Part shown: positions 15,283 to 54,001 of the stretch, in pieces
Numbering within the stretch: position 1 is the first letter of the stretch
Layout of the letters: each line of letters opens with the position of its first letter
IMG/VR virus record: IMGVR_UViG_3300042890_002721
Coordinates: 1-64,000 of that record
From: a virus
Direction: 5' to 3' (one strand)
Length of the DNA stretch: 64,000 nt
Made by a program: the position numbers and the translations under genes
Notes under the pieces: model-generated
Told to the model about the DNA's origin: nothing
The model's database searches: none
What the model saw: only the letters and a program-made list of their open reading frames with translations

Positions 15283-15408
15283 TTATTTTATATCATTTGA
15301 TTCTATTAGTGTATAAGTAAATGAATTACCATGAATCTTAGCAGACTTTTTAACTATCTTCATGAATTCATCAAAATCTTTAACCCTCTTAAAAACTTGA
15401 CACCCTTC
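15283..15408 (-). pseudogene. displaced original 3' end of gene 15972..16571
   Basis: Encodes EGCQVFKRVKDFDEFMKIVKKSAKIHGNSFTYTLIESNDIK*, near-identical to the C-terminus at 15972..16100. Confidence 0.92.
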
Positions 15409-15988
15409 ACGTAGCATCTTCAATTATATATCTTCTTTTTAATTTATAAGTATTTTTACACATTCGTATATTACTAGGTTTAGCATTAAGACCTATTGCA
15501 CAATCTTTAGAGTTATTAAAAAAATAAATTTCACCAGTTTGTGTGTCAGTAACTTTTAATGGTACTTTACTATTTGAATCACTTTGTTTCTTTTTAAAAG
15601 AATCATTGACAAATTTACCACCATAGTTAGGATTATTAACACCTTTATTAGCTTTAGAAATTTTTAAAATTATTTCACACCTATTTGGATGGTTAGAAAT
15701 AGTATCACCACCATCACCACCATTTGTCATATTAATCAAACTTCCGTTATTAATTTTACGACCAATACGATTAATCCAATATATTTCTCTTTCTAATGAT
15801 TCAATATTAGTTAACCCATCTTCCAATATTATAATATCATACCCATATTTATTTACAATACGATGCCAATATTTAGAACGACCATGTGTACTAACACATC
15901 TATCACCAAAACCTTTACCAACATAAAAAACAACATTTGTTGCTGTATTTATATGTGCATATACATAATATTTAGTGTTTAACATCAT
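15407..15988 (-). CDS. GIY-YIG homing endonuclease with NUMOD-type DNA-binding tail
   Basis: YYVYAH...FYVGKG...R...E...LINMTNGGDGG; NKGVNNPNYG. Confidence 0.88.
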   Translation of the reverse strand: MMLNTKYYVYAHINTATNVVFYVGKGFGDRCVSTHGRSKYWHRIVNKYGYDIIILEDGLTNIESLEREIYWINRIGRKINNGSLINMTNGGDGGDTISNHPNRCEIILKISKANKGVNNPNYGGKFVNDSFKKKQSDSNSKVPLKVTDTQTGEIYFFNNSKDCAIGLNAKPSNIRMCKNTYKLKRRYIIEDAT

Positions 15989-16571
15989 TACTATTAATTA
16001 AAGTTAGTGTAAATGAATTACCATGAATCTTTGCTGCTTTCTTAACTATTTTCATGAACTCATCAAAATCTTTAACCCTCTTAAAAACTAAACAACCTTC
16101 TGACCAGTTTTCAACCCAAGTTGAATCTTTACCAGCTTTATGGATATTGATACCGAATACACCTTCATCAATCTTTGTTTCATCAAATACTAAATCTTTA
16201 TTTGGGTCACGATAAACCTTTACCGATTTTGCTTGTTTTAAGGCCTCGTACTTACCTTGGTGAAGACCTAACGCATGTGAACCTCTATATTGTCCTTCAA
16301 CAAGTCTAGCAACACCTTTAGCGTTGTGATATTCCATTACACCTTTCTTACCTGGTTCTGTTGTGTTCATCCATTCTTTATAAACCCAATTACCAGTCTC
16401 ATCTTTATATGATATTGTAATCATATCATCAAATACGTTTGTTACTTTATTTGCAGTTGATGAGTTTCTAACACCTACGATGTTTACATCATAAGATTTA
16501 TTTTTTATGTCATTAAAATAGACATAACCTTTTGAAGACAATGCCGCTTCAATTTGTTCTCTTGTATACAT
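15972..16571 (-). CDS. YkuD/L,D-transpeptidase-like cell-wall enzyme
   Basis: GINIH...WSEGC His/Cys motif; adjacent to lysozyme. Confidence 0.65.
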   Translation of the reverse strand: MYTREQIEAALSSKGYVYFNDIKNKSYDVNIVGVRNSSTANKVTNVFDDMITISYKDETGNWVYKEWMNTTEPGKKGVMEYHNAKGVARLVEGQYRGSHALGLHQGKYEALKQAKSVKVYRDPNKDLVFDETKIDEGVFGINIHKAGKDSTWVENWSEGCLVFKRVKDFDEFMKIVKKAAKIHGNSFTLTLINSNDVKH

Positions 16572-16575
16572 AGTT

Positions 16576-17037
16576 TTATTTTTTAAAATATAAATCAGCT
16601 TCAGCTTGCCTTCTTAATACTAAGCCTTTTAAAACTTTATTTGAAGCTTTTGTCCATTTCATGAACTCAGCTCTTATTGTTTCATCTTTTGCGTTTTTGT
16701 TGACTTTCTTCAATAATGTTGACGATTTTAGGTTTGATGGTCCTAAGTTGTAACAAAATGATACTAGTGCGTCAAATTGGTGTTGTGTGATTGTATCTAT
16801 ACAATATGAGTCAACATATTGTTCAAATTTTGACAACATATCTTTTAGTAGTTCAACACCTTCTGCTTCAGTCATTGGTTTATCAGCCATTGTAACTTTT
16901 TTACCGTTAGGGTAGAAGGTCGCTCCGTATGCTATTGTTGGAATCCCAGCTGGACACTTATATGGTTTAGACATAAACCCTTCAAACTTTTTGATTAGTT
17001 CGATACCTTCACTACCCGTTTTTGTAATTTTTTCCAT
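16576..17037 (-). CDS. lysozyme (GH24 endolysin)
   Basis: IKKFEG...PYKCPAGIPTIAYG, QFDALVSFCYNLG, GLVLRRQAE. Confidence 0.93.
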   Translation of the reverse strand: MEKITKTGSEGIELIKKFEGFMSKPYKCPAGIPTIAYGATFYPNGKKVTMADKPMTEAEGVELLKDMLSKFEQYVDSYCIDTITQHQFDALVSFCYNLGPSNLKSSTLLKKVNKNAKDETIRAEFMKWTKASNKVLKGLVLRRQAEADLYFKK

Positions 17038-17072
17038 AATTATTATTGTTTAGTTATAAATATCTTTTAAAT

Positions 17073-17103
17073 AAAAAAGGTACCCGTTATGAGTACCTTT
17101 TTT
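17073..17103. terminator. intrinsic terminator
   Basis: AAAAAAGGTAC-CCGTTATGA-GTACCTTTTTT. Confidence 0.75.
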
Positions 17104-17121
17104 TATTTTATTTATATTTAA

Positions 17122-18975
17122 TTATTCTTCTTCGTCTTCTTCTTGTGATTCTTTAACCACACCTTCTTCTTCTTCTTCAGATTCTTCTTCAGATTCTTCT
17201 TCCATATAAGATTCGTTGATTGGTTCAAATCTAACACCACCTAACGTAATACCTTCAGTTATTGCTTCTTCTTTAGCAACAGTTTCTTGGTTAGCTGTAG
17301 ATTCTTTACCCATATGGATATGTTTCTTAGCTTCAGCAGCATGAGGTACATTTATATCTTCCCAATGACCAGCTTTAGCTTTTTTACCTTCAATGTTTTC
17401 ACCTTCAGTTTTAACTTTAGTAGTTTCTTCAACTTCTTCAGTTGTTACATCTTCAACACCTTCTTCTTCCTCTTCTTCTTCTTCTTGGTTAAAAGATTCT
17501 TTCATTGTTACGTGTTTAGTTGCATCAGCAGATTTTTTCTTAACATTTTCCCATTCACCTTTTTTAGGTGCTGGTGCTTTTGTACCTTTTTCAGTTGATA
17601 CAGAACCTTCTACATGAGCTTTAGCTTCAGCAGCGTGAGATACAGCATCATCTAAATCACCTTCTTTTGCAGCTGGTGCTTGAGTTCCTTTATCTTTAGA
17701 TACAGAACCTTCTACATGTTTAGTAGCTTCTGGTGCTTTTTTAGTTATACCATCCCATTCACCAGTTTTAGCTTTTGCGTTTTCAATATCTTCACCTTCT
17801 AACAACATTTTTGATTTGCTATAGATATCACCAAAAACAGCGTTTTCATTGATTCTAGCATTACCTTTTAAAAGACCAAGAGTTTCAGTTGATTTATAAC
17901 CCATAAGGTGTTTCATGTGAGCCATATCTTCAGATACCATTTTCTTATCAGATGCCATAAGTACAACAGCTCTACCTTCAGTTAAGTTACCTTCCCAACG
18001 GATTTTATAAGTTTCATTACCATCTGTCATTTCGAATTGTTTATTATCTACTCTGTAAGATTCTGGTATCATTTTAAGTGCATTTCCAACACCGTTAAAC
18101 TCTTTTTTAAATTTAAGTCTTTTCATTCCTTCTTTTATTTGTATTTTGTTGTTATCATTATTTTCGAACATACCACCTTTCATAGCTTTTTTATCTAACT
18201 TGGTAGCTGATTTTTTAGCAGTTTGCATTGCTAAAGTAAATTGTTTTTTATTTAATAAAGAAATTATCTTATTAATAGCATTACCATATTCCATACTATC
18301 TGGCATATCAGATAACATACCAGTTTCACTGTATCTATTTAATAATTTTTCAGCTACTTTATCAACACCAGTTTCAGCTATCCAACCACTTATGATTCTA
18401 GCGTTTTTTTCTTCTGGAGTTTCAATATTCTCATCTAAAGCATAAGGTCTATGACCAGTATCCTTTAAATCAGCTTGGATGTCTCTACCTCTAAGGTTAA
18501 GTGTTGGAGTTTGATTATTTCTTTTTTCAGTTGATGCTTTAACTCGTTTAACCAAATTTTTACCAAAGTCTGGACCAGTAAACCCTTGTTGTTTAGGTAT
18601 TACATTAGCCCATTCTGGGTTATTACCCATTCTAGTACTACCTTCGATTGCCTCTTCAGCTCTCTTTTTAAAGTTATCATCTGGTTTACTGTCATATTGA
18701 AGCATTTCTTGACCATTCATGATTTCCATTTCTTCATGATATGTTTTCTCAAAATCATCATCATAATTAAATTTGTTCTGAGCCATTTCTTGTTCATTTT
18801 TGTCAGCTTTAACATTTTTCTCAAATGCTGTGACATCTTTCTCAATAGCTTTAACACCGTCTTTGTTAAATTTACCAGATTCTTTATTGACAGCAGCTGT
18901 TACCGAAATTCCAGGTACTGTTTCCTCTGTGATAAATTTACTATTTAAGTGTTTTTTTATTATGTTTTTATCCAT
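17122..18975 (-). CDS. acidic repeat-containing protein, head-internal/scaffold candidate
   Basis: 617 aa; GxW...A(E/D)AxxHV repeats; poly-E; late motif upstream. Confidence 0.8.
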   Translation of the reverse strand: MDKNIIKKHLNSKFITEETVPGISVTAAVNKESGKFNKDGVKAIEKDVTAFEKNVKADKNEQEMAQNKFNYDDDFEKTYHEEMEIMNGQEMLQYDSKPDDNFKKRAEEAIEGSTRMGNNPEWANVIPKQQGFTGPDFGKNLVKRVKASTEKRNNQTPTLNLRGRDIQADLKDTGHRPYALDENIETPEEKNARIISGWIAETGVDKVAEKLLNRYSETGMLSDMPDSMEYGNAINKIISLLNKKQFTLAMQTAKKSATKLDKKAMKGGMFENNDNNKIQIKEGMKRLKFKKEFNGVGNALKMIPESYRVDNKQFEMTDGNETYKIRWEGNLTEGRAVVLMASDKKMVSEDMAHMKHLMGYKSTETLGLLKGNARINENAVFGDIYSKSKMLLEGEDIENAKAKTGEWDGITKKAPEATKHVEGSVSKDKGTQAPAAKEGDLDDAVSHAAEAKAHVEGSVSTEKGTKAPAPKKGEWENVKKKSADATKHVTMKESFNQEEEEEEEEGVEDVTTEEVEETTKVKTEGENIEGKKAKAGHWEDINVPHAAEAKKHIHMGKESTANQETVAKEEAITEGITLGGVRFEPINESYMEEESEEESEEEEEGVVKESQEEDEEE

Positions 18976-25145: not shown

Positions 25146-25973
25146 CTAATCATTAATTAAAGTGAACAAATCATGTGCATTATGTCTTAATTTTCTAAGT
25201 GCCTTTTCTTTGATTTGTCTAATTCTTTCTTTTGTTAAACTATATTTTTCACCTATAGCTTCAAGTGTCATTGCTTCACATTGTGTATTAACACCAAAAT
25301 AAGATTCAATAATTTCTCTTTCTCTATCATCTAAAACACTAAGAGTTTTATTTATTTGGTCTTTAACTCTTTTATCGATTATTAATTCTTCTTCTTCAAC
25401 TTCACTAGCTATTAATTGAATCAATTCATCACCTTCTTCATTGATACTCTCATTCAAAGATGCACATTTAGGGAAGTATAACATACTTGAAGTGTCTTTG
25501 TCTTTATCTTTGATTTCACCAAATACTGGTTCTCTTTCATTTTCATATTCAAATTTAGCAATTTCTTTATTTAAATATGATATTTTGTTAATTACATTTG
25601 CTGGTAATCTAACCATTCTAGCATTATCGTTAAGACCTTGTATGATTGATTGCCTAACCCACCAAACAGCGTAAGAGATAAATCTAAAACCACGTTTATG
25701 GTCAAATCTAGAAGCAGCTTTTATTAAACCATAATTACCCTCATTAATCAAATCGGATAATGGTAATCCTTGTCCTTGATATTCTTTAGCAACAGAAATT
25801 ACAAATTTTAAATTAGCTTGAACCAATTCATGCATTGCTTTATCATCACCATTTTTTATTTTCTTAGCTAATTCAACTTCTTGTATAGGTGTTAATATTG
25901 TTGATTTTCTAACATCTTTAAAATATTTACCTATGCTATCATCATTGTCAAAATTTACGTATTTTTTACTCAT
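25146..25973 (-). CDS. RNA polymerase sigma-70 factor (RpoD/RpoS-like, no region 1.1)
   Basis: LVQANLKFVISVAKEY, DLINEGNYGL, RFISYAVWW, MTLEAIG...LTKERIRQIKEKAL. Confidence 0.95.
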   Translation of the reverse strand: MSKKYVNFDNDDSIGKYFKDVRKSTILTPIQEVELAKKIKNGDDKAMHELVQANLKFVISVAKEYQGQGLPLSDLINEGNYGLIKAASRFDHKRGFRFISYAVWWVRQSIIQGLNDNARMVRLPANVINKISYLNKEIAKFEYENEREPVFGEIKDKDKDTSSMLYFPKCASLNESINEEGDELIQLIASEVEEEELIIDKRVKDQINKTLSVLDDREREIIESYFGVNTQCEAMTLEAIGEKYSLTKERIRQIKEKALRKLRHNAHDLFTLIND

Positions 25974-32112: not shown

Positions 32113-33279
32113 ATGGTAAATAGTAATATGAAAAATTTTATAAAACAAAAATTAAACGAAGCGTTATTGAAAGAGAAATTAATGCTTAAAGATTGGGATT
32201 TATATATTCAATTGGTAGCTAAGGCTTATGCTGAAGCACCAGACTTCGATGCTAGTGTTGTAAACGCTTGGAATGCTCTTAATCAATCTAATTATACATT
32301 ATTTAATAGAATCTTATCAAAGGTTAATTTAATCTTCATAACTTCAGATAAGAATAAAGTTGGTTCTATTGAAATAAATGGTAAACTTTATAAAGTTAAA
32401 TTAGCAGAACTTGGTGATGAGTATAATACTCAAAGTGAGATGAAAAATTCATTCAATGAAACTGGTATACTTAAAATTAGTATGGATTATTCTGAACACC
32501 CTATATTAAGTGTTAAAGATAATATTGTATTTAGAAGTGTTCATGATTACATTGCTCATATATTAGGTAATCATGATTTTGGTGCTAAGGGTGAAATAGC
32601 TTGTTATAATTTACACGCTAAAATGGCACCTAATGCAGCAATACCAGCGTTGTTTACTGAAGTGGTTGGACAAGCATCAACAACAATAGTAACTAATTCT
32701 TACCCTAAACAAAAAATAGCTATATTAAAAGGTTTTGATTACACAAGGGTAGGTCTAATTGATGATGATAATTATGTGATTGTTGATAAGGTTTTAGTTC
32801 CTAAATCACAAGCTGAAAATCCAATTATAAGTAAACCAATCGATAGAACTGAACCAAGTGTTGTTCCACAAAAACAAGAATTTGAAGAACCTTCATTAAC
32901 TGAGTATTATGATGATTTTGATTATGATGATATGGATTTTTTTGAACCAAAGAAAGCTAAGAAATCCGATAAGGTTACTTTTATGGCTAAATTACCAGAT
33001 GTGATTAGATTATACAGAATACTTGTTGCTGATTCAATAGAAGATATCGATACAACATTCTTAGGTTATCATTATTCAATGGATAAAAATAATCTATTAA
33101 GAACACACAGCTTTTTAAAAGGTAAAAAATACTTCTTGGCGACTGTAGATGCTAAAAAATCTTTGGTGGATATAAAAACTACTATGGATAATAATGCATT
33201 ATATCCTAATGAAAAAGAAATAACCCTTAAAAATAAAGGTAGAGGTGTTGATGTTATATCTATTGAACCGTTGAATTAA
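32113..33279 (+). CDS. late two-domain protein; C-terminal ADP-ribosyltransferase-like domain
   Basis: GTATTTAT upstream; N-term MKNFIKQKLNE; C-term LYR...HYS...NEKEI. Confidence 0.7.
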   Translation: MVNSNMKNFIKQKLNEALLKEKLMLKDWDLYIQLVAKAYAEAPDFDASVVNAWNALNQSNYTLFNRILSKVNLIFITSDKNKVGSIEINGKLYKVKLAELGDEYNTQSEMKNSFNETGILKISMDYSEHPILSVKDNIVFRSVHDYIAHILGNHDFGAKGEIACYNLHAKMAPNAAIPALFTEVVGQASTTIVTNSYPKQKIAILKGFDYTRVGLIDDDNYVIVDKVLVPKSQAENPIISKPIDRTEPSVVPQKQEFEEPSLTEYYDDFDYDDMDFFEPKKAKKSDKVTFMAKLPDVIRLYRILVADSIEDIDTTFLGYHYSMDKNNLLRTHSFLKGKKYFLATVDAKKSLVDIKTTMDNNALYPNEKEITLKNKGRGVDVISIEPLN

Positions 33280-33380
33280 CTATATTCATTATAATTTAAT
33301 TTTCTGGATGTTCTAAGTAAAGCAACTACACCCTTAGACCCATATTGTTCAAACAATTTAGATGGGTCATAACCTTCTGG
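33276..33380 (-). pseudogene. displaced original 3' end of primase gene
   Basis: Encodes PEGYDPSKLFEQYGSKGVVALLRTSRKLNYNEYS*, vs PEGYDVSLINQVYGSKGVIKLLRTTRKLKYDELN* in the intact gene. Confidence 0.9.
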
Positions 33381-33423
33381 TGACTTTTAAGTAAATTATA
33401 TGTATTTATATTAAAACATATAA

Positions 33424-33993
33424 ATGCCTTATAAGAACCCAGAAGATAAAAAAGCACATAACAAAAAACGTTATGAAAATAATAAAGAAAAATTAATTTT
33501 ACAAAATAAAGAAAATAAAAATAAAAAAATTAATAATAAAAAATATCGAGATAAAAATAAAGAAAAAATTAATGAAAACCAAAAAATATACGCATTAAAT
33601 AATAAAGAGAAAATTAATACATATAAAAGAGAATACGAAAAAAATAGAATGGAGATTGACCCATTATTTAAAATGATTAAAAACATTAGAAACTTAATTG
33701 GTGTTTCAATAAAAAGACAAGGGTTCGATAAAAACTCAAAAACTATTACCATACTTGGTTGCTCATTTAATGAATTCAAGTCATATCTAGAATCAAAGTT
33801 TGAAACATGGATGGATTGGGGTAATAAAGGTAAATATAATGGTGAATTAAACCATGGTTGGGATATAGACCATATTATACCAATATCTTCAGCTATAACT
33901 GAAGAAGATGTGATTAGATTGAATCACTATACGAATCTTCAACCATTGTGTAGTAAAATAAATAGAGATATTAAAAAGGATAACTTAATTTAA
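33424..33993 (+). CDS. HNH-type homing endonuclease
   Basis: Basic repeats, LGCS...YLESKF...WDIDHIIP...NHYTNLQPLCSKIN. Confidence 0.88.
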   Translation: MPYKNPEDKKAHNKKRYENNKEKLILQNKENKNKKINNKKYRDKNKEKINENQKIYALNNKEKINTYKREYEKNRMEIDPLFKMIKNIRNLIGVSIKRQGFDKNSKTITILGCSFNEFKSYLESKFETWMDWGNKGKYNGELNHGWDIDHIIPISSAITEEDVIRLNHYTNLQPLCSKINRDIKKDNLI

Positions 33994-37133: not shown

Positions 37134-37135
37134 GA

Positions 37136-39283
37136 TTAAAAATCCATACTAAGTTCAATTGTTATTGTGTTTGATGCAAGAGTGATTGGTGTACTTACTT
37201 TACCAACACATACTAGATTTTTATCAGTATCATAAATACCAACTTCACTAATCTTAATATTAGGTGGGTTAGTTGACATATCTTTACTTCTAGTTGGATT
37301 TGTAGTAGAGTTAAATGTTGATGAATTTACATTTACATTAAAAATTGTTTTATATATTGTAGCACCAATGTATGTATTTAAGTTTCCATAAAATAATCTT
37401 TCATCACCAAATTGTAATGCATCTGGTGTCATATTAGCAGCTAAATTTAATAAACTGATAAGGTCAAAAGTAGTTGATGTCGCACCATTTATCATGTCTA
37501 AAACAAAACCAGTTGTTGATGGTACTTGACCTTCAAGTAATTTAGGGTCAATAGTTTCACCAGAAACACCAGTAATAGCTGTTGAGGTTAAATCAACTTG
37601 TTTCCATGAACCAGCATCTGGTCTAGTTGTTGAGTCTGGAATTATTTGGTATAATAATTTAAATTTCTTAGCGTAAAAACCGTAACCATCATATGTAGCC
37701 GATTCATATTTACGCATAAATGGTAATAAATCAGTTGAATTGATTTTAAATGCTACATCCTTAGCAGTATTTGATTCGTTTGTTAATTTTACATATTTCT
37801 GACAAGGCATACTAGAAGTTAAACCAGTTCCTATTTCATTTTCAAGGCTATAAGTTAAATAGATTGTACTGTTTATAGGTAAAATACCAGTAGAAGTACC
37901 ACCAGAAGGTGAAGAAATCGTTGCAGATAATTCTGGAAGTGTCCAATTTCTATTTGATTTGTAAGATGTAGCAGCCACTATCTCATCATCGTGTAAAACA
38001 ATAGTTTTTAATTGTGGATATACTCTACCAACAACCATTGGTGTTGCTGAATTTGAAAGATATGAAGAATCCTCATATAAATCCATGTATTCAATATCAC
38101 TAGTACCAATATATTGTGTCAGACCACTCGCTGTAAATTTCATACCCATTGTAGTACCACTTTCAGTTGCGTAAGCACTTCTATGATACATAAGGTCTGG
38201 CATAACAATACTAACCGTTTTACCATTTTGTGTATCTACATAGAAAAATTCACCATATAGGTTAGAAATAGTGTTATTAGTATAATGAATGATTGACACT
38301 GATTTACTAATATCATCTGGATAACTAATCCCAGGTCCATTACAACTAAAAGATAATGTGGTAGCAGTGCTTTGACATAAATATTCTAAGTATGGGTTTT
38401 TCTCACCCAAATAAGTATAAGAACCAAATTTAGTGTAATTTTCATACAATTTAGTTTTTGTTAAACCAGTTACACCAGCTAAATCTTCACACCAAACATT
38501 ATTCATATTCCAAACTGGTACATCATGACATGTAATGTTTGAAGCTGAATCGAATGAAAGTGTTCCAGAATCCCAATATGCAGTTGTGTTTCCAGTAGCT
38601 ATCGTATCATATACTTCACCACCTCTATAAACAAATACTTGTGAATTACCAGTGAAACTAGAATAATTAGGTAAATTTCTATCGATAGTAATGTTATACA
38701 TATCAATAATATCTTGTATTTTAAACCATAGATTTGGTAACGGTCTAGTATTCTCATCTGGTATTATAGTTCCAGAATAATCATTAGCTACCTTAATCAA
38801 AACTATATCACCAATTGTAAATGCCGATGTTGGTCCAATATTTAAATTTGTTGTTCCATCTAATATTAAATTACTTATTAAATTAGTGAAAGCAACATAA
38901 GTTTCAGTAGATTTTGTTGTATAATTACCACCAGAATAAGTAAAAAAACCTCTTTCTTCAGCTTGATTATTTACAACAGCTTTTATAACATTTAAGTTAG
39001 TGTTAGTTAAATCTTGATAAGGTGTTGCTGCATTACTTGGAGTAATATACGATTTAAAATTTGGTTGTCTATCTAATGGTCTTAGTATTTTACTAGTTTC
39101 ACTAAGTGTAGTATCACCAACATTAATTGCTGCATCTACGATAGCTTCTCTATTATAATTAAGTTCAGAATCACCGATAGCCCAATATGTAAAATTAAGT
39201 TTTCCTTGTGCTAACATTTCACGCCCAGTCTGAGTTAATTTAATACTAACAAATGGATTTGTATTTTTTATTATATATGACAT
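37136..39283 (-). CDS. virion structural (baseplate/tail) protein
   Basis: KLTQTGR...WAIGDSE N-term; ISEVGIYD...LVCVGK C-term. Confidence 0.75.
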   Translation of the reverse strand: MSYIIKNTNPFVSIKLTQTGREMLAQGKLNFTYWAIGDSELNYNREAIVDAAINVGDTTLSETSKILRPLDRQPNFKSYITPSNAATPYQDLTNTNLNVIKAVVNNQAEERGFFTYSGGNYTTKSTETYVAFTNLISNLILDGTTNLNIGPTSAFTIGDIVLIKVANDYSGTIIPDENTRPLPNLWFKIQDIIDMYNITIDRNLPNYSSFTGNSQVFVYRGGEVYDTIATGNTTAYWDSGTLSFDSASNITCHDVPVWNMNNVWCEDLAGVTGLTKTKLYENYTKFGSYTYLGEKNPYLEYLCQSTATTLSFSCNGPGISYPDDISKSVSIIHYTNNTISNLYGEFFYVDTQNGKTVSIVMPDLMYHRSAYATESGTTMGMKFTASGLTQYIGTSDIEYMDLYEDSSYLSNSATPMVVGRVYPQLKTIVLHDDEIVAATSYKSNRNWTLPELSATISSPSGGTSTGILPINSTIYLTYSLENEIGTGLTSSMPCQKYVKLTNESNTAKDVAFKINSTDLLPFMRKYESATYDGYGFYAKKFKLLYQIIPDSTTRPDAGSWKQVDLTSTAITGVSGETIDPKLLEGQVPSTTGFVLDMINGATSTTFDLISLLNLAANMTPDALQFGDERLFYGNLNTYIGATIYKTIFNVNVNSSTFNSTTNPTRSKDMSTNPPNIKISEVGIYDTDKNLVCVGKVSTPITLASNTITIELSMDF

Positions 39284-40196: not shown

Positions 40197-40272
40197 GTGC
40201 TAATTGTTCACGACCTTTCTCCGTTAATTTAATACTAACGAATGGATTTGTATTTTTTATAATGTAACTCAT
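40197..40272 (-). pseudogene. displaced original 5' end of gene 37136..39283
   Basis: MSYIIKNTNPFVSIKLTEKGREQLA vs MSYIIKNTNPFVSIKLTQTGREMLA. Confidence 0.92.
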
Positions 40273-40329
40273 ATGTTATAAATATGTTTTTATCTTATTT
40301 TAGTTATAAATATTCAATAGTAAATAATA

Positions 40330-42005: not shown

Positions 42006-42033
42006 ATCTATAAATATGTTTTTTTAACTATTA

Positions 42034-43056: not shown

Positions 43057-43082
43057 ATATCTATTTTATTTATTTATTATCA

Positions 43083-46751: not shown

Positions 46752-46802
46752 TATAACTTAATTTTTTTATATAAATACTTTAATTTTTTTTTTATTTATT
46801 AA

Positions 46803-49430
46803 CTAAGGTCTATAAAACCCATTACAATTAACACTACCATTTTTTCTACCTAAATATGTTCTTAAAATAAAACTAGTAGATGGGTTCAACATATCATGTC
46901 TCCCACCACTTGTCAATTTACAAGCATAACCAACATTATTTGTGTATGGGTCAGTTATATTTGGAACAGCTACTGAAAATTTTCTCAAACAATTACACCC
47001 ATCTGGTGTTATTATTGTATGACTACCATCTTCCTTGATAAAATCAATATAACCATCTTTAGGTGTTGGGGCAGCTAACCATCCACATGCTAAAGTACAC
47101 CCACATTTACCACCACCATCACAACAAACATAACCAGAATTAACCACAACACCATTCACGACTTCAGTGTTTATAAATGGTGTACCGTTAAAACTTTTAC
47201 AACACTCCATTGTTGTGTAAATCGAATTAAGTTCAACTGGAGAGCCATTATTTGTGAAAATACTTCCATCACTATTATACTGATAATATGTGAAATTGTA
47301 AATACCAGTACTTGGATTATTAGTAGGTGATGTAATTAAACTATCACTACATGAACTGGTATTAATTTCATCTTTTTTCTTTATACAAAGACTCATAACG
47401 TTATCAACACCCTCACATGGACATCCACATGCATTATTAACCGTACCACCACTGTATGGGTCTGAAATGACCGTTGGTGTGAATACATAACAGTTTGATA
47501 AGTCTTCACCATCAAGTCCAGTTAAAGATACAGTATTAACAGTTGTGTTAGCTGTAGTTTCATCATACGTTCCAGATTGGTTGTTAACAAATAAATTGGT
47601 TGAACCAGAAGTAATCGTTTCAGCTGTTATTGTTACTGCTGAAAAATTAGGTATTAAATTAACAAATTGGTTGATGTATTGAAAACCACCATCATAAGGT
47701 CCTAAATGTGGGTTATTACCAGTAAGTATATCTACATCAGATAACCCCCCACCAGTTTGTCTATACCATAACCCTTTATTTTGGAAATACATATCTGGTG
47801 TATCAGCCAATGGTCTTGGGAATCCGTCTGAATCAATAGGGTAAATGCTTAAATCAGTATCCAAACCGTTTAATTCTAATACCTTTATAAATAATTCAAT
47901 ATCTATTGGTTCTTTGGCTTTATAAACGTATTCATTGAATTTAACAAGACCTTTTGGAGCCCCAATAAATCTAAGAAGAAATTCAATCGATTTTCTAGCA
48001 CCTTTAGATTTCCAAATCCATGGTGAGTTAAGTATAAGTCTTCTCCAAAGCTCAACATCAGCTTCAGCAGCTGTTAATCCAACACTTTGACCAGAGAAAC
48101 TTGAAGGTTTTCTAGTTATGTAATTTGATAATAAATTATTTTCAACAACAGATGAAATTAAATCCCAACCTAATACTCTAGCTAAGTCTTTTAAATAGAC
48201 ATCTGGTGTGTTATCTTGTTTATCATATGTTACTGTATGTGCGAATTCAATACCAGTTATTAACTTATTTACTTCATCAAATTCTCTACCATATATCCTA
48301 AGTGTTTTATTTGCTTTTTGACCAGATGTATCTTGGTCCAAATAACTTAAATGAACTGGTGTTGTATCAAAATCTGAAATAGATTCAGTAACTAAAAATC
48401 TGTTTATTAAATCACTAGATTTTAAATCGTTTTTATTCGAAATATCTACTAATTTATTAACATAACCAATATATTGAGTTGTATCGAAATCAATATTATA
48501 CCCATCAGATACTGGCCAAGTTACATCATTATTAATGTATAATACAATACCATTATCAGTTGTTATTGGATATCTAAATGATGCTGTATAAATTGGTGTA
48601 ACTTGTCTATTAAGTAAGTATGATTCGAAATCTGGTAACCCATTAAAGAATTGTTCGACTTGTTGTTCGTTTGGTTTGATATGGTAAGTAGTTGTACCAC
48701 TACTAGAACCACTAAATGGATTACCAAAAGTTTTGAAAAATAAATAATCATTTGCTTGAGTAGTTGAACCAGTGAAACCAATCAGAGGGTATTCACCACC
48801 ATTAACTAATATAGAATAAGATAAATATTCAACTGTTAAATCTCTTAATGGATTATTTTCATTGAATGAATTTAAAATAGTACCATTAGCTAAATAATTA
48901 ATTTGAAATTTATTGTTTATAAATCTAGTATCTACTTTAAATGTTGTTTGATTTGTAATTAAATCATAATTATTATCTTGGAATGTTGCACCACTTAAAG
49001 CATCACCATTTATATCTGAAGAGTTTGGGTTTAGGTATAATGATGCTGGCCAATTTGTTATTATTTCTTCTAATGAGACTCTAACGAATTCAGTTAAAGA
49101 ACCAAACAATGCATAATAATTTAAATTTGTTTTATCTAAATTAAGTTTTGGCTTTATATTATCATTTAATATTGTTTGTGATTGTACTTGTGTTAAATCT
49201 AAATCATTTAATGTAACAAATTTTGAGAACTTACTAGTAATAAATGTTTTATCATTTTTAGGTTCCATATTTGTTGTAATAGTAAAATTACCCATTGTAA
49301 ACAATGTAGTTCCACTATTACTAGTTAATTGTGTTCCAACTAAATCTGGACTAAATGGTCTATATTCGATACCATTCCCAAAAAATTCTTTTTTAGCGTA
49401 TCCAACGACTTTTATTCTATTATTACTCAT
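46803..49430 (-). CDS. baseplate-like structural protein with Cys-rich C-terminus
   Basis: LKDLARVLGW, WKSKGARKSIEFLL (gp7/tail-I-like motif). Confidence 0.7.
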   Translation of the reverse strand: MSNNRIKVVGYAKKEFFGNGIEYRPFSPDLVGTQLTSNSGTTLFTMGNFTITTNMEPKNDKTFITSKFSKFVTLNDLDLTQVQSQTILNDNIKPKLNLDKTNLNYYALFGSLTEFVRVSLEEIITNWPASLYLNPNSSDINGDALSGATFQDNNYDLITNQTTFKVDTRFINNKFQINYLANGTILNSFNENNPLRDLTVEYLSYSILVNGGEYPLIGFTGSTTQANDYLFFKTFGNPFSGSSSGTTTYHIKPNEQQVEQFFNGLPDFESYLLNRQVTPIYTASFRYPITTDNGIVLYINNDVTWPVSDGYNIDFDTTQYIGYVNKLVDISNKNDLKSSDLINRFLVTESISDFDTTPVHLSYLDQDTSGQKANKTLRIYGREFDEVNKLITGIEFAHTVTYDKQDNTPDVYLKDLARVLGWDLISSVVENNLLSNYITRKPSSFSGQSVGLTAAEADVELWRRLILNSPWIWKSKGARKSIEFLLRFIGAPKGLVKFNEYVYKAKEPIDIELFIKVLELNGLDTDLSIYPIDSDGFPRPLADTPDMYFQNKGLWYRQTGGGLSDVDILTGNNPHLGPYDGGFQYINQFVNLIPNFSAVTITAETITSGSTNLFVNNQSGTYDETTANTTVNTVSLTGLDGEDLSNCYVFTPTVISDPYSGGTVNNACGCPCEGVDNVMSLCIKKKDEINTSSCSDSLITSPTNNPSTGIYNFTYYQYNSDGSIFTNNGSPVELNSIYTTMECCKSFNGTPFINTEVVNGVVVNSGYVCCDGGGKCGCTLACGWLAAPTPKDGYIDFIKEDGSHTIITPDGCNCLRKFSVAVPNITDPYTNNVGYACKLTSGGRHDMLNPSTSFILRTYLGRKNGSVNCNGFYRP

Positions 49431-49440
49431 TCTTTTTTAA

Positions 49441-50364
49441 TTATAATGTTGTTACTGATGTAAATGATTTTGTGAAATCAATACTAGCTCTTTCTTCTCT
49501 AACCTCAAATAATGGTTTACCACTAAATTGGTCTTTGATTTCAAACAAGTTGTATTGTTTATAAATATCATTGTTGAAGTTATAGATAGTGTAAATACCA
49601 TCTTCAAGACTTTTACTTTGATTACCAAATAATGCAAATGCTAGAGTCTCAACATCATGTTGAACCATTTCAACCTCAACCATTATAGGGTTGAAAAATG
49701 TATTTGTTATAATTACTTGTTGGTTTGGTTGACCGATAAATGGTACTGCATTAGGTTTAACGTTTGATGCAGAACTTGGTGATACGGTACAATAAGTCAA
49801 ACTTGAGTTATCATTGAATCTATAACGAATAGCTTTTTGGTTACTATTTGTTAAATTTTGATTAACTGGTTCAGCTCTATTGTTTGATGTAATAACCCTA
49901 AAGAAATTATTTAACTTAGCATCATCAGCAGCTGTGTTTGTGTCTAAATACTCAATTCTATAACCAACAAGTCCATTATTCTCAAATTTATTTGCAAATT
50001 GAGAGGGGATTGATGAGATATCAAATAAAACACCTTTGATGTCTGGGTATGCTGAAAGAGCACCACAGTCAACTATTTTAGTTCTAATCTCAACTGGTTT
50101 GATGTAAATTGTATAAAAACCCTTTGCACCAAATGTTGCTACGGGTAATTTAAGTGTGTACATACCACCAAAAATTTCAAATCCAGATACTCCAGATTGT
50201 GTTTTATTTGGATTATCTATTTTGAATAAAACTTCGTTAGAATCCAATTTAATCAAGTCGTTATTACCAATCTTATCTCTAGATGGTGTGTAGTGGTAAA
50301 ACACTTCTACATCATCTGGTGATATATCTGCTGGTCTTACTATACCATACGTTCCAGTTGCCAT
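49441..50364 (-). CDS. virion structural protein
   Basis: 307-aa ORF in structural cluster. Confidence 0.75.
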   Translation of the reverse strand: MATGTYGIVRPADISPDDVEVFYHYTPSRDKIGNNDLIKLDSNEVLFKIDNPNKTQSGVSGFEIFGGMYTLKLPVATFGAKGFYTIYIKPVEIRTKIVDCGALSAYPDIKGVLFDISSIPSQFANKFENNGLVGYRIEYLDTNTAADDAKLNNFFRVITSNNRAEPVNQNLTNSNQKAIRYRFNDNSSLTYCTVSPSSASNVKPNAVPFIGQPNQQVIITNTFFNPIMVEVEMVQHDVETLAFALFGNQSKSLEDGIYTIYNFNNDIYKQYNLFEIKDQFSGKPLFEVREERASIDFTKSFTSVTTL

Positions 50365-50413
50365 AATTTTTTATCTTTGTATTAATATAACATTGTTTTG
50401 TTCAAAGTATATT

Positions 50414-51295
50414 TTATTGTTTATTTAGTTTGTAAAATCCATTACCATATCTACTTAATTCACCTAAGTTTTTGATTTCAGATAATCTTAAATGAATATC
50501 TAACACACTAGTCTGTCCTCTATCTATAAATACGTCACTTTGTACTTCTGGTGGATTAATTATACCAAATAAATACTCTTCTTTGGTAATAGCTGATAAA
50601 GATGTGTTTGTTTCATTCCATCCCTCACCAATATATTTAAATTGAGTAAGTGGAATTGTTGAATTGATGTTATCTATCACAACACTTCTAGTTTCCCCAG
50701 TATAATCTAAATACTGTAACCCATAAATTTGATTATTAGTCCCTAAATTACTATCATTAGGTGTGTTAAATACATATATTCTAGGTTCCCCCATAGAAAA
50801 AACCCTATCAACACCAAGTATATTTAAATTATTATAGTTAATGTAGTCTTGAGAATTGGTATCGAACCCGATTCTATACTGATTATTTCTATCATAAGAC
50901 TTAACATCTTCTAATTTACTATCAGTAAACCCAGTTATTAGTGAATTACCATAAACATAATAGTCTGATTCAACACTACTAGGCATTCTTAATATGTTTT
51001 TATTAGTACTAGTGATTCCAGTCATCGGTTGAGATGTTGCACCAGTCATAAATGGGAATGTAAAACCACTAGAACTTAATTTATCTACCAATAAAGTATA
51101 ATCTGGTGATGATGGGTTATTATTATCTTTAGGTATATATTCTATATCAGTAAATAAACCCATATCATCAACAGTTTGTGTTAAATTAATTTTTAAATAG
51201 AATGTTGTAGCCGTAATAGTTCCCCACGTAGGGCTATTATAATTTCTATCAATACTATCCTCTAATAATATTTTTCTTTTAATAACCGAACTCAT
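50414..51295 (-). CDS. virion structural protein
   Basis: PEVQSDVFIDRG...YGNGFY; structural cluster. Confidence 0.75.
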   Translation of the reverse strand: MSSVIKRKILLEDSIDRNYNSPTWGTITATTFYLKINLTQTVDDMGLFTDIEYIPKDNNNPSSPDYTLLVDKLSSSGFTFPFMTGATSQPMTGITSTNKNILRMPSSVESDYYVYGNSLITGFTDSKLEDVKSYDRNNQYRIGFDTNSQDYINYNNLNILGVDRVFSMGEPRIYVFNTPNDSNLGTNNQIYGLQYLDYTGETRSVVIDNINSTIPLTQFKYIGEGWNETNTSLSAITKEEYLFGIINPPEVQSDVFIDRGQTSVLDIHLRLSEIKNLGELSRYGNGFYKLNKQ

Positions 51296-52181
51296 TTTTT
51301 AATTTTTCATTTACATCTTCGTTATAATTAACTCTAATTAACCTAATATCATTGTTTAAACAATAGTTTGTTTTTATTAAATCTGTTTTTTTGACTCTAT
51401 TAAAACCTTTCTCACCACCAAATATGTCAATTGGTTTAAAATGTTGTATTCCATCATATTCAATACATACATTATAATCTGGTAGATAAAAATCAAAAGG
51501 TAATGGTCTAATATCTTTACAATCATTAAAATATTTTTGTTTTATGAATTTTAGGTTATTACTAATTAAATAATTTCGCACCACTTTTTCACCTTTTGAT
51601 TCTTTACAAATTGGACAACCTTGTCCTAAAATATGGTTATTTGTTAATTGATTGAATTCTCCGTGTTTTGGGCAAAGTATTTTAACCTTGGTTTTTGTAT
51701 TGATGTAATCGACCAAAGAATAATCATATTTATCACCATGTTTTTCTTTTGCTTGTTTTATAAATTCATATAAATTTTTTCTTTTAACACCACCACAATG
51801 TTGACACCCACTACCTAAAAGATGGCTATGTGGTGTTTGTTCGAATTCACCATGTATCGAACAAATTATTTTAACTTTTTCATCATATTTTTTATATTCA
51901 ACCAAGGAATAATCAAAGATTCCATTATGTATATTCTTAGCTTTATTTATGAATTTATTATTAGATAAAGTTTTATTTAACTTAAATTTTTCACGACCAC
52001 AATATGGACAACCTTGATTATCTAGGTGACAGTTTGGTGTTTGTTCGAATTCACCATGTATCGAACAAATTATTTTAACCTTTGTTTTATTATTTTTATA
52101 GTCGACTAATGAATAATCATAAACGTTTCCATGTATCATCGCACATTTTACAATAAATTCATTTGTTGTTAGTTTTCTCAT
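51279..52181 (-). CDS. homing endonuclease, paralog of 39271..40158
   Basis: Three YDYSLV/CxxHGEFEQ repeats + LPFDFYLP...IEYDGIQH. Confidence 0.87.
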   Translation of the reverse strand: MRKLTTNEFIVKCAMIHGNVYDYSLVDYKNNKTKVKIICSIHGEFEQTPNCHLDNQGCPYCGREKFKLNKTLSNNKFINKAKNIHNGIFDYSLVEYKKYDEKVKIICSIHGEFEQTPHSHLLGSGCQHCGGVKRKNLYEFIKQAKEKHGDKYDYSLVDYINTKTKVKILCPKHGEFNQLTNNHILGQGCPICKESKGEKVVRNYLISNNLKFIKQKYFNDCKDIRPLPFDFYLPDYNVCIEYDGIQHFKPIDIFGGEKGFNRVKKTDLIKTNYCLNNDIRLIRVNYNEDVNEKLKNEFGY

Positions 52182-52211
52182 ATAATATAAATATATTGTA
52201 AAAATTAAAAG

Positions 52212-52241
52212 TTATAAAATTTTGCGTTTTAATACTTCCAT
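52212..52241 (-). pseudogene. displaced original 5' end of gene 50414..51295
   Basis: MEVLKRKIL* vs MSSVIKRKILL; ATG overlaps the upstream stop (TAATG). Confidence 0.8.
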
Positions 52242-53056
52242 TATGTTGCTAATATTTGATATAAGTTAACCGTAGCGTTATTTGTTGAATAAGATACGTT
52301 ATTTGAGTAAGTGTTATCAATTTCATAGTAGTACCCATTATTTTTCCTAACCAAAACATATCTAGTATATAATTTAGTTATCAATTGGTCTATAGGTAAT
52401 GCGGCATTACTTACCATAAGGTTAGTTGACTTACCACTTTTAGCGTTTTTAAAAGATGCTCTCATATAAAGATACTTTGGTGCACCATTAATTACTAATT
52501 CATCTTTAAAATCATATATGTAATAACCTTGTGCATTACCTATAGGGTTAAGTATAGGGTTATCAACAGAGAATGTTAAAAATATCTGACTAGCTGGTAT
52601 TGGTTGACCAACTGAAATATTTGGTCCACTAGTTTGGTATAAGTCCATTGGTGTTAAGCTGGGGTATAATGTGATAAAACTGATTAAGTTTTGTATTAAT
52701 GGGTTGTCACTATCGTAGAATGATAAATTAAGGAATGTTTGTTTGAACTTTTCAGTTTCAAGTTTAATATCATCATCAGTGAAACCAATATCACCATAAG
52801 TTAATTTACCATCCAAATTAACAACATATGTAATCTTATCAACATGATTACCTAGTAAATCTGTTGGTAAGAATCTAGTTTTTTCGTAATCAATAATTGG
52901 GTTTATTGCTTTTTCAATTTCAGTTTCAACAAATACTCGCTCAATTAATTCAGATTGGTCAACCAATTGGTATTCCATATTAATAGGAATATTAATAGTA
53001 GTTGCTGTAGCACCAGACATTAATGAAAGATTTATTTTATATTGATTAACAAGCAT
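52241..53056 (-). CDS. virion structural protein
   Basis: AINPIIDYEK, LSFYDSDNP, YMRASFKNAKSG. Confidence 0.75.
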   Translation of the reverse strand: MLVNQYKINLSLMSGATATTINIPINMEYQLVDQSELIERVFVETEIEKAINPIIDYEKTRFLPTDLLGNHVDKITYVVNLDGKLTYGDIGFTDDDIKLETEKFKQTFLNLSFYDSDNPLIQNLISFITLYPSLTPMDLYQTSGPNISVGQPIPASQIFLTFSVDNPILNPIGNAQGYYIYDFKDELVINGAPKYLYMRASFKNAKSGKSTNLMVSNAALPIDQLITKLYTRYVLVRKNNGYYYEIDNTYSNNVSYSTNNATVNLYQILAT

Positions 53057-53945
53057 AATATTGTTTTAATTTATTAGTTATTTTTTCATCATATTTAATA
53101 ATTATCAAATCAATTTGTTTATCAACACAATAATTTAATTTTATTCTATCTCTTTTTTGTTGTTGTTTAAAAACCTTAAAACCACCAAAATAATTGATTG
53201 GTTTGTAATGTTGTTCACCTTGGTACTCAATACATGTATTATAATCTGGTAAATAAAAGTCAAAAGGTAGTGGTCTAATATCTCTACAATCTGGGAATCT
53301 ATGTTGTGGTAAGAAATTAATATTATTTTCTGTTAGGTATTTTCTTATTTCAGATTCACCTTTAGACTCTTTACATATCGGGCAACCGCCACCATTTAAA
53401 TGATGATTTGGTGATTTTTCAAACATTCCATGGATACTACATATTATTTTAATTTTTTTATGCGTACTTTTATATTCTGTTAATTTATACGAATATAAAA
53501 GACCATATTTACTAATTGCTTCAGTGATAAAATCTTCAGTGGTTTTTCCTCTACCAAAACATCTACCACAACCACTACCATTTAAATGGTCATTTGGTTT
53601 TATTTCAAAAACACCATGTTTACTACAAATTATTTTAATTTTTGTTTTATTATTAAAATACTCAACTAGTGAGTAATCATATTTATCACCATATACTAAA
53701 TTAGCCTTACAAATAAAATCCTCATTTACCATTCTTTGTTTTTCACTTCTATTTTCAACACCACATTTATAACAACCACTACCATTTAAATGGCTATTTG
53801 GTGTTTGTTCAAAATTTTCATGTTCTGGACATGTTATTTTAATTTTACTATATGAATTTACATAATTAGTTATAGAATAATCATATTTATCACCATGAAT
53901 TGATTTAGCTTTAATTATGAATTCTTCAGTCGTTAATTTTTTCAT
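53046..53945 (-). CDS. homing endonuclease, paralog of 39271..40158
   Basis: HGDKYDYS repeats + LPFDFYLP...IEYQGEQH. Confidence 0.87.
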   Translation of the reverse strand: MKKLTTEEFIIKAKSIHGDKYDYSITNYVNSYSKIKITCPEHENFEQTPNSHLNGSGCYKCGVENRSEKQRMVNEDFICKANLVYGDKYDYSLVEYFNNKTKIKIICSKHGVFEIKPNDHLNGSGCGRCFGRGKTTEDFITEAISKYGLLYSYKLTEYKSTHKKIKIICSIHGMFEKSPNHHLNGGGCPICKESKGESEIRKYLTENNINFLPQHRFPDCRDIRPLPFDFYLPDYNTCIEYQGEQHYKPINYFGGFKVFKQQQKRDRIKLNYCVDKQIDLIIIKYDEKITNKLKQYYAC

Positions 53946-53989
53946 TTATATTTCTTTTTATTATAAATATAACAAACATTAAAAATTTC

Positions 53990-54001
53990 ATTAACAAGCA
54001 T
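53990..54001 (-). repeat. 12-bp direct repeat ATGCTTGTTAAT (other copy 53045..53056)
   Basis: Identical stop/start overlap on both sides of the endonuclease. Confidence 0.8.

Follow-up and report, generated by a model that had tools for sequence, protein, structure and literature searches.

The stretch of DNA described here, referred to as the window, is the 64,000-nucleotide piece at positions 1 to 64,000 of the IMG/VR virus record IMGVR_UViG_3300042890_002721, and it holds five endonuclease genes, each of which lies between the intact, atypical end of a neighbouring host gene and a displaced, consensus-like remnant of that same end. One of the nucleases is probably of the GIY-YIG type, one probably of the HNH type, and three are built from a zinc-finger array and a Vsr-like domain (PD1, PD2 and PD3). 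Two of the arrangements are swaps of a 3' end (g199 with the GIY-YIG gene, a DNA primase with the HNH gene), and three are swaps of a 5' end (a zinc-finger-array nuclease in each case, at the structural genes g715, g293 and g271). These places and this division, proposed in an earlier sequence-only reading, are confirmed by inspection of the open reading frames (ORFs) and by family matches. The features of the five cassettes are listed below; related loci are designated by L numbers and metagenome runs by X numbers.

15283..15408, minus strand: orphan native 3' end of g199, 41 codons and stop, beginning at the stop codon of the GIY ORF
15407..15988, minus strand: GIY-YIG homing endonuclease gene (phrog_314 5.7e-24, Pfam NUMOD3 3e-5)
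15972-16100, minus strand: replacement 3' end of g199, its last ~43 codons
15972..16571, minus strand: g199, host gene of cassette 1, a 199-aa endolysin-module protein, labelled LD-transpeptidase-like in the earlier reading (phrog_3000 2.2e-35, phrog_33083 endolysin, no Pfam match)
33276..33383, minus strand: orphan native 3' end of the primase, 35 codons and stop, converging on the stop of the native gene 32113-33279 (plus strand)
33424..33993, plus strand: HNH endonuclease gene, convergent with the primase (9-nt overlap), motif at 33402-33409
33985-34092, minus strand: replacement 3' end of the primase, its last ~35 codons
33985..34941, minus strand: DNA primase, host gene of cassette 2 (phrog_47 8.9e-38, DNAG_N)
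37136..39283, minus strand: g715, host gene of cassette 3, structural, no known family, aligning with relatives over residues 1-715
39209-39283, minus strand: replacement 5' end of g715, its first 25 codons
39271..40180, minus strand: cassette 3 (PD1), motif 40173-40180 and zinc-finger-array/Vsr-like gene with its start at 40158
40198..40313, minus strand: orphan native 5' end of g715, 25 codons (40198-40272) and the native upstream region
50414..51295, minus strand: g293, structural, host gene of cassette 4, with homologues directly after g271 in relatives
51266-51295, minus strand: replacement first 10 codons of g293, part of cassette 4, overlapped by the last 17 nt of the nuclease
51266..52214, minus strand: cassette 4 (PD2), 949 nt, spacer with motif 52187-52194 and endonuclease 51279-52181
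52215..52241, minus strand: orphan native first 9 codons of g293, the start overlapping the g271 stop as in relatives
52241..53056, minus strand: g271, structural, lying between cassettes 4 and 5 and host to the latter
53045..53989, minus strand: cassette 5 (PD3), 945 nt, spacer with motif 53963-53970, endonuclease 53046-53945 and one copy of the 12-nt repeat
54001-53942, minus strand: 19-codon remnant ORF of PD3, its stop overlapping the nuclease start codon
53990..55769, minus strand: g592, structural, upstream of cassette 5, its last codons and stop forming the left copy of the 12-nt repeat (53990-54001)

Duplicated gene ends

Over the five cassettes, the repeats measure 134, ~107, 105, ~27 and 12 nt. 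In cassette 1, 15275-15408 is paired with 15967-16100 (134 nt, 79% identical); in cassette 2, 33276-33345 is paired with 33985-34054 (70 nt, 76%), which extends to ~107 nt at the codon level; and in cassette 3, 39208-39312 is paired with 40197-40301 (105 nt, 76%). The nine-codon remnant of cassette 4 (52215-52241), the counterpart of the present ten-codon start, is invisible to a DNA search and was found by reading the sequence and comparing it with relatives. The repeat of cassette 5 (53045-53056 and 53990-54001) is exact, and the earlier description of each duplication as two diverged copies therefore holds for four pairs and fails for this fifth one.

The codons of the two copies point to their relation. 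Over 40 codons of g199, remnant and intact end share 24 identical codons, with 11 synonymous and 5 changed; the corresponding figures for the primase are 12 identical, 9 synonymous and 14 changed; and the copies of g715 differ at 6 synonymous and 3 changed codons. The differences in g199 and g715 are mostly synonymous, a pattern to be expected of diverged homologues under selection and not of a duplicate decaying in place. The g199 protein aligns with 80 relatives over residues 1-198, and its joined end is atypical, with Leu after Cys instead of an otherwise universal Gln and with a different tail; the start of the GIY gene overlaps this end by 17 nt. The end-duplication signature is found on five of the seven endonuclease-like genes of the window, no flank repeat above noise being detected there at the HNH_3 (1143-1637) and T5orf172 (29592-30107) genes.

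Nuclease families

PD1, PD2 and PD3 (39271-40158/40272, 51279-52181 and 53046-53945, all on the minus strand) are paralogues that are 52-53% identical to each other and match phrog_559 at 1e-81 to 1e-89 (1.6e-81 for PD1, which also matches DUF4379/DUF723). Each is composed of three ~60-aa zinc-finger modules with matches to DUF723, DUF4379 and CapR, and of a C-terminal domain of ~110 aa, in which D, E, H and K columns are invariant across 58 sequences. A sequence search of the PDB with the PD nucleases gave 0 matches. The model of the C-terminal domain (pLDDT 92) has as its closest PDB folds Vsr, the catalytic domain of I-Bth0305I, AbaSI and PvuRts1I, with match probabilities of 0.94-1.0 but weak E values of 0.007-0.03. 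On the basis of this model, the paralogues fit the EDxHD/Vsr-like nucleases with CapR-like arrays, and the earlier label "PD-(D/E)XK-type" is acceptable for a domain that is likest the Vsr and I-Bth0305I folds.

For the GIY protein of the window, the Pfam GIY-YIG model is unreported at E<=0.01, and two tyrosine-containing motifs are seen by eye; the protein is 69% identical to the same-site GIY protein of L419 and 46-48% identical to those of 11 IMG/VR relatives. The HNH protein, which has 78 relatives in IMG/VR, matches the Pfam HNH model at E 0.0074 (16.8 bits, with a cut-off of 21.4) and phrog_1035, "endonuclease VII", at 1.9e-6, and a His/Asn pattern is visible by eye at residues 144-178.

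Insertions relative to related phages

The window is 29% GC, has nearly all of its genes on the minus strand and belongs to a source record of 72.6 kb that is estimated to be ~21% complete. It encodes a lysozyme, a primase, SbcCD-like proteins, a sigma factor and baseplate proteins, along with many structural proteins without a known family, and the setting assumed here is a giant phage from lake water. The stretch is present in lake-water and freshwater metagenome runs of several studies, and its relatives are uncultured phages with contigs of up to 380 kb. At least ten studies have runs with part of the stretch, and six of them contain half of its sequence words or more; the one RNA run listed contains 0.07 of these words. 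In the GenBank phage collection, megablast of 33000-56000 matched only a 113-nt stretch in two jumbo phages, and tblastn with g715 gave zero matches. The loci compared below come from IMG/VR and from metagenomes, two sets that overlap; a primase-based scan of IMG/VR yielded only 4 loci, and the flanks of g715 loci were used in its place.

Against these uncultured relatives, all five cassettes are insertions. The genes g475 and g715 are adjacent, with a gap under 100 nt and no endonuclease between them, in 77 of the 77 relatives that hold both; nucleases at the g592/g271/g293 junctions are present in 0 of the 56 relatives of the g271 search, where the three genes abut; in most relatives g260 comes within ~50-700 nt after the primase, and the interval is free of intact HNH genes; and g199 is followed straight by the next gene in all 66 GIY-less loci with enough flank to be judged.

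In each case the remnant is the end that looks native. The 25 residues of the g715 remnant are exactly those of L001, its closest relative, and the match is almost complete over the 68 nt that precede them, whereas residues 18-24 of the joined end match only L042 among 78 relatives. The amino acids of the g199 remnant are identical to the C-terminus of L141 and L144. Counted over relatives, the remnant is closer than the intact end in 69/78 cases for g715 and in 71/78 for g199. The translated primase remnant bears the family consensus found in most of ~60 relatives, and the joined primase end lacks the conserved Pro-Ser-Lys stretch of the family and resembles L070. At the g592/g271 junction, the overlap of stop and start in relatives is a conserved word of 12-13 nt, the same word as the 12-nt repeat of the window; and in nearly all of ~53 relatives the g271 stop overlaps a start whose N-terminus equals the nine-codon remnant, the atypical g293 start with its one extra residue being shared only by L224 and the footprint in L088. 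The limits of a co-conversion tract could not be drawn by sliding comparison of g715 with its relatives, since even the nearest one is only ~75% identical at the DNA level.

A near-identical strain without two of the cassettes

Contigs from four runs of four studies were aligned to window positions 36000-55900, and joints between paralogous nucleases with sides of 21-31 letters were ignored as repeat artefacts. A contig from run X3, another lake metagenome (21.4 kb, depth 67), has 26 letters different from the window in 11.2 kb. It leaves out exactly two pieces, 51266-52214 (949 nt, with an ambiguity of 3 nt) and 53045-53989 (945 nt, with an ambiguity of 12 nt). At the first joint, by coordinates, the nine remnant codons run in frame into the body of g293; at the second, the g592 stop and the g271 start regain their conserved overlap. 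The prediction that remnant and gene body together give the ancestral allele is thus borne out in cassette-free relatives and in this strain. A contig of run X8, ~92% identical, skips 51270-52218, and the PD1 junctions are present in contigs of X3, X7 (~94% identical) and X8, which belong to three other studies.

Between X3 and the window, g271 differs at 14/830 nt, as against 26/11,182 and 1/1,911 nt in the flanks. To judge from these counts, the raised divergence fits co-conversion, or else a slightly diverged donor that passed on the entire cassette-gene-cassette block. A metagenome scan with g199 found no near-identical strain, its best match being 88% identical.

Shared cassettes, a putative target codon and probable decay

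L224 has cassettes at the same two junctions, one of the PD3 type (57% identical) and one of the PD2 type (66% identical), with the same kind of remnant and an atypical new start, and its host genes are 59-61% identical to those of the window, no closer than those of many cassette-free relatives. In L419, the GIY gene (69% identical) overlaps the g199 end in the same way, and the atypical tail of g199 is shared as well; a remnant is missing, the nuclease gene is followed by a terminator, and by this gene order L419 is to be regarded as the donor-type layout.

Further inserts of this kind were sought with an end-peptide scan of the relatives, which replaced a generic DNA self-repeat scan of 189 loci that was swamped by repetitive structural genes; many hits due to the terminal likeness of g715 and g403 were set aside as paralogy. 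The scan gave eight further inserts between gene-end duplicates, with a GIY-YIG or HNH ORF in 8/8, and the duplications fall at the following gene ends.

Primase, 5' end: L004/L049, L025/L139, L056, L067/L078
g219, 5' end: L007, L039
g219, 3' end: L007, L067

In L007 (9374-11990), the homologue of window 35211-35870 is replaced at both ends, with a GIY-YIG cassette and 5' remnant upstream and an HNH cassette and 3' remnant downstream. For L025 and L004, cassette-free sisters exist (L024 and L002), and the native N-termini of these sisters equal the remnants. The primase DNA of L025 and L024 is 62% identical in the first ~90 nt and 98-100% thereafter; that of L004 and L002 is 68-73% identical in the first ~90 nt and 95-100% thereafter. 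In both pairs, a sharply bounded foreign patch of ~90 nt is thus visible. When L025 is compared with L056, the GIY gene is 84% identical, the new end 91% and the primase body 69%, with the junction after the same codon in both. The earlier proposal that gene ends move between phages is in this sense upheld for PD2, PD3, the GIY gene and the primase cassette of the relatives, in which nuclease gene and new end travel together between lineages.

A single codon of g199, beside the conserved Cys, follows the presence of the nuclease. It is Thr in 11 of the 11 GIY-bearing IMG/VR relatives and Gln in the 66 GIY-less loci; among metagenome loci, the GIY-less ones have Gln in 63/63, three GIY-bearing ones have Thr and L419 has Phe. 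In the window, the joined copy has Leu and the remnant, which begins 8 nt upstream of the codon, has Gln.

Several loci look like later stages. L088 has an atypical start like that of L224 and a few codons like the nuclease C-terminus, with no nuclease gene; L081, L082, L121 and L096-98 have spacers of 31-33 nt and atypical starts at the g592/g271 junction; and a 35-residue HNH relic follows the primase in L070.

As for frequency, a survey at the protein level over deduplicated loci found flank duplication above the 99th percentile of shuffled pairs in 10/62 PD-family and 3/38 HNH-family loci, one of the three HNH-family positives being strong. At the DNA level, 8/78 loci were positive after L259 had been dropped as an artefact of overlapping search windows. 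These counts are lower bounds, since the HNH, PD2 and PD3 repeats of the window themselves score within noise in the DNA flank test, and short repeats of the PD2/PD3 type are missed by both surveys. The suggestion of a general strategy accordingly stands as far as recurrence goes, and not as universality.

Motif and expression layout

The promoter-like motif RTATTTAT lies 6-18 nt upstream of the three PD starts and 15 nt upstream of the HNH start, at 33402, 40173, 52187 and 53963; in the sequence-only reading, the first two positions were right and the other two (52186, 53962) off by one. The motif is inside the cassette in the three PD cases and just outside it for the HNH gene, which limits the statement that the cassettes carry a motif of their own. 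It is enriched in the window, with 54 matches against 36.8 +/- 5.6 expected and 0/100 shuffles reaching 54. On the minus strand between 13 and 56 kb, 11/24 copies are within 60 nt upstream of a gene start, zones that make up 6% of the region, and most relatives also have it, conserved, upstream of g715. The upstream region kept with the g715 remnant holds two promoter-like motifs (40278-40285 and 40306-40313).

At PD1, the start of the remnant opens a 333-codon frame (ORF 39271-40272) that runs in frame into the nuclease; at PD2, remnant and nuclease are separated by a 31-nt gap. All three PD nucleases end 11-17 nt inside the new start of the host gene (13 nt in the case of PD1 and g715). As read from these frames, the three 5'-end cassettes show a translation chain that is kept, in which the remnant start would feed the nuclease by in-frame fusion or by stop/start overlap.

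Interpretation and alternative explanations

The five elements are, with good confidence, end-replacing homing cassettes that are propagated as units, and the mobile unit most likely consists of the homing endonuclease gene together with the stretch of host gene next to it, from a few to ~43 codons long. In a mixed infection, the nuclease would cut the cassette-free allele of a related phage near the place where the remnant now starts. Recombinational repair would then copy the cassette between two homology arms, one of them the gene body and the second made up of the displaced old end together with the neighbouring gene, by analogy with the WHO elements at FBA1 that are described below. As comparison with relatives shows, the recipient is left with a chimeric full-length gene whose new end differs at the target, and with its own old end stranded as a remnant. 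The first layout of this kind is likely to have come from one-sided illegitimate repair of an ordinary free-standing nuclease gene, and later decay or deletion would leave behind a scar in which a few nuclease codons accompany the foreign end. Such a scar stage appears in L088 and is suggested by L081/L082/L121 and L096-98. The recoded ends are predicted to destroy the cut site, the sole support being that alleles linked to an intact GIY gene all have another codon in place of Gln.

Several observations weigh against this reading. The PD1 cassette is found in 0/77 relatives, and its spread as a unit is putative; the only same-site counterpart of the HNH cassette is the degenerate relic of L070; and the 12 identical bases of PD3 would also fit a microhomology-mediated insertion of an ordinary intergenic nuclease gene. 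The gene can be maintained without the duplication, since remnants are missing from L419 and from all 11 relatives that bear a GIY gene. The association of Thr and Gln with presence and absence of the nuclease goes back to few independent lineages, and partial GIY hits follow Gln-allele g199 genes in L434 (2013-2276) and L440 (1308-1745), where they may be dead nuclease genes. Flank duplication is undetectable in 52/62 PD-family and 35/38 HNH-family loci elsewhere. For all five nucleases, the places of cutting are predictions, as is the ability of the recoded ends to resist, and run X1 may be the source sample of the window itself.

Part of this evidence is shared with the explanation that the layouts are one-off scars, in which illegitimate repair, one-sided or by microhomology, captured ordinary nuclease genes, the duplicated ends remain as passive and non-propagating debris, and the new end is useless. 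The uniqueness of PD1 among 77 relatives, the 12 identical nucleotides of PD3, the same-site GIY genes that occur without duplication in 11 relatives and L419, and the one-sided illegitimate repair documented for T4 introns (PMC2988022) all suit it. It is nevertheless rather unlikely, since the same cassette, junction and new end recur across lineages (L025 and L056, the window and L224, the window and L419) and the polymorphism seen in X3 has exact boundaries. Such a capture probably describes the first origin of each layout, and as such it complements the homing of cassettes more than it competes with it. That the cassette-bearing layout is ancestral, and that cassette-free genomes arose by deletion between the repeat copies, is very improbable: deletion does occur, as the foreign start and few nuclease codons kept in L088 and the 31-33-nt spacers at the g592/g271 junction of L081/L082/L121 and L096-98 indicate, but the cassette-free alleles carry the consensus end and not the foreign one in nearly all relatives and in X3, and recombination between diverged repeats would usually leave chimeric ends.

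The two remaining explanations are more remote still. The window is a metagenome-assembled fragment, and contigs of other runs break inside the internal zinc-finger repeats of the nucleases, which would be in keeping with an assembly artefact or a chimeric contig; there is scarcely any likelihood of this, given that contigs of X3, X7 and X8 from other studies bridge the junctions, that the same layouts occur in independent IMG/VR contigs (L224; L025 and L139; L004 and L049), and that repeats which are 76-81% identical are not collapsible duplicates. A self-splicing intron or an intein holding the nuclease ORF, with gene body plus remnant as the true product, has a precedent in the probable inteins that relatives use elsewhere (595-aa homologues of g260 with weak LAGLIDADG matches). 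Here each host ORF runs uninterrupted over its full length and is colinear with its homologues, which makes splicing unnecessary. Rfam gave no intron family at the gathering score over the whole window and, at E<=1 over 14500-17500, 33000-41000 and 49500-56000, nothing but one chance miRNA hit, and a Hint/intein domain search of the nuclease ORFs was negative; splicing of either kind is accordingly extremely unlikely, in line with the earlier statement that intron and intein features are missing. A transposon with target-site duplication was rejected because the repeats vary from 12 to 134 nt and four of the five pairs are diverged (76-81% identical).

Relation to known systems

The closest mechanism is that of the WHO elements at FBA1 in Torulaspora and Lachancea yeasts, in which a nuclease gene stands between a full-length, resistant host gene and a fragment of the end of that gene (Coughlan et al. 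2020, eLife, PMC7282813). Homing of WHO replaces the gene end and pushes the old end outward, where it acts as the second homology arm; the unit is the nuclease gene with the resistance-conferring end, and it passes through cycles of decay that leave chimeric host-gene evolution behind (PMC7282813). Experiments are the basis of the argument that the sensitive allele is cleaved, that the linked allele resists and that the old end works as an arm, with cleavage shown for Who6 (PMC7282813). The cassettes of the window have the same layout of nuclease, intact end and old-end fragment. WHO nucleases are LAGLIDADG-zinc-finger proteins that derive from inteins and are encoded in a nuclear eukaryotic genome, with homing tied to meiosis, whereas those of the window are phage-borne GIY-YIG, HNH and Vsr-like proteins, which rules out membership of the WHO family by homology, even though the cassettes work in the same manner. 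WHO replaces only 3' ends, of ~400 bp; the window has repeats of 12-134 nt, and three of its five ends are 5' ends. Cleavage is shown for Who6, while the window nucleases are known from sequence.

Fungal mitochondria hold comparable "gene hybrids" with mobile endonuclease ORFs (mORFs), at Allomyces atp6, at Glomus atp6, atp9, cox2 and nad3, at Rhizopus atp9 and at Mortierella cox2 (PMC3630166, PMC6279837). In these, a foreign C-terminal end travels with a LAGLIDADG or GIY-YIG ORF, and the native C-terminus left downstream clusters with the kin of the host, which the inserted end does not (PMC3630166, PMC6279837). A foreign joined end and a displaced native end are found in the window as well. 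The cases named there are all C-terminal and organellar, with the mORF often in phase with the host gene; unlike them, the window has 5' swaps with translational chaining, and presence and absence in near-identical genomes.

In T4-like phages, free-standing nucleases with "intronless homing" (SegF, SegG, SegB, MobE) are described as intergenic, and the same review describes one-sided illegitimate break repair (PMC2988022). The likeness to the window lies in GIY-YIG and HNH genes that stand between conserved phage genes with a patchy distribution, in a cut, predicted in the case of the window, in the neighbouring gene of a nuclease-less phage, in the co-conversion of flanking markers and in a linked allele that is polymorphic at the target. 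The cassette nucleases of the window are of this seg/mob type, being stand-alone genes at a fixed site that are patchy among related phages. Unlike the intergenic T4 nucleases, the window inserts lie inside a coding end and carry a duplicate of that end. The terms "duplicat", "remnant" and "pseudogene" are absent from the searched text of the T4 review (PMC2988022).

The PD paralogues, with their three zinc-finger modules and a C-terminal domain like Vsr/I-Bth0305I, resemble the nucleases with a CapR-like zinc-finger array and an EDxHD/Vsr-like domain that are reported in introns of groups I and II as a large unannotated family (Nucleic Acids Res 2025, PMC12350094), and T5orf172 nucleases with CapR/DUF723 arrays are also known (PMC10448857). 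The available text of PMC12350094 does not mention duplication of flanking gene ends ("duplicat", 0 occurrences). More generally, no phage report of gene-end duplication around nuclease genes was found in open-access text, supplements aside, including PMC10448857, PMC2248197, PMC2988022 and PMC12350094.

The sequence-only reading had set the window beside Allomyces as its known parallel. Yeast WHO/FBA1 narrows the novelty, being an experimentally supported case of the same mechanism. The mechanism as such is thus already known from WHO/FBA1 and fungal mORFs, and what is new is the 5'-end version, with its translation chained to that of the host gene. The window cassettes are a variant beyond the known systems in that they belong to a phage, include this 5'-end form and involve three nuclease families.

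Other features of the window and its relatives

The two endonuclease-like genes of the window that stand outside the cassettes have neighbours of their own: the HNH_3 gene at 1143-1637 adjoins a tRNA gene (1717-1789, minus strand), and the T5orf172/MUG113 nuclease-like gene (29592-30107, minus strand) stands between an SbcD-like gene (30104-30916) and small ORFs preceding an SbcC-like gene. Elsewhere, the window carries the following genes.

3158-3527, minus strand: phage-borne tmRNA gene (74.8 bits)
3793-4491: ClpP protease
5599-6606: DnaJ with zinc-finger domain
17122-18975, minus strand: 617-aa protein with Glu-rich tails and internal repeats of ~100 nt
25146-25973: full sigma-70-type factor
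62562-63992: ribonucleotide reductase large subunit, the frame running off the window

The adjacent structural genes g715 (37136-39283) and g403 (35922-37133) resemble each other at both the N- and the C-terminus, in relatives as in the window, and by this similarity look like diverged paralogues.

Some homologues of host and neighbouring genes are longer in relatives. In L033, L045, L048, L063, L065, L066, L069, L072 and L074 (~3200-5945), the homologue of g475 (window 40330-41757) has 879-914 aa instead of 475, with an in-frame insert after residue ~50; a Pfam scan of three of these long forms (L033, L045, L063) gave no match. In ~20 relatives g475 seems to be split, and in L122-124 so does g293; these were examined as candidate cassettes and rejected, since they are in-frame domain insertions, SprB/Ig-like or without a family.

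The homologues of g260 (window 31260-32042) reach 590-595 aa instead of 260, with an in-frame insert of ~335 aa at residue ~167, in the following loci.

L008, 11729-13516
L032, 11091-12878
L061, 12014-13786 (590 aa)
L140, 5489-7276

The inserts of L008, L032 and L140 have weak LAGLIDADG/Hom_end hits, that of L061 has no Pfam hit, and the g260 insert is probably an intein. If so, the same phage group uses both inteins and end-replacing cassettes.

Implications for phage genomes

The window and its relatives offer an unusually full natural series within one system, from a donor-type layout through a fresh invasion, a near-isogenic uninvaded strain and a shared distant cassette to decayed scars. 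The chances are about even that end-replacing nuclease cassettes are a widespread and undescribed route by which phage proteins gain foreign N- and C-termini without introns or inteins. If so, the displaced 5' remnant would serve as the translation leader of the nuclease, and the last codons of the cassette would give the host gene its new start, so that the element slots into a translationally coupled late operon. Blocks such as the cassette-gene-cassette unit at 51266-53989 would, in the same case, sweep natural populations of giant lake phages on observable time scales.

The boundaries of the remnants predict the cut sites of five nucleases from three families, which could supply new nucleases with long sites, and in annotation the short orphan ORFs and "fused" nuclease ORFs beside such genes can be read as remnants. 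Selfish nucleases can, on the homing account, invade viral coding sequence without splicing machinery, and the cassettes give a concrete and checkable mechanism for a frequent puzzle of phage genomics, the sharp mosaic boundaries that lie a few dozen bases inside conserved phage genes.

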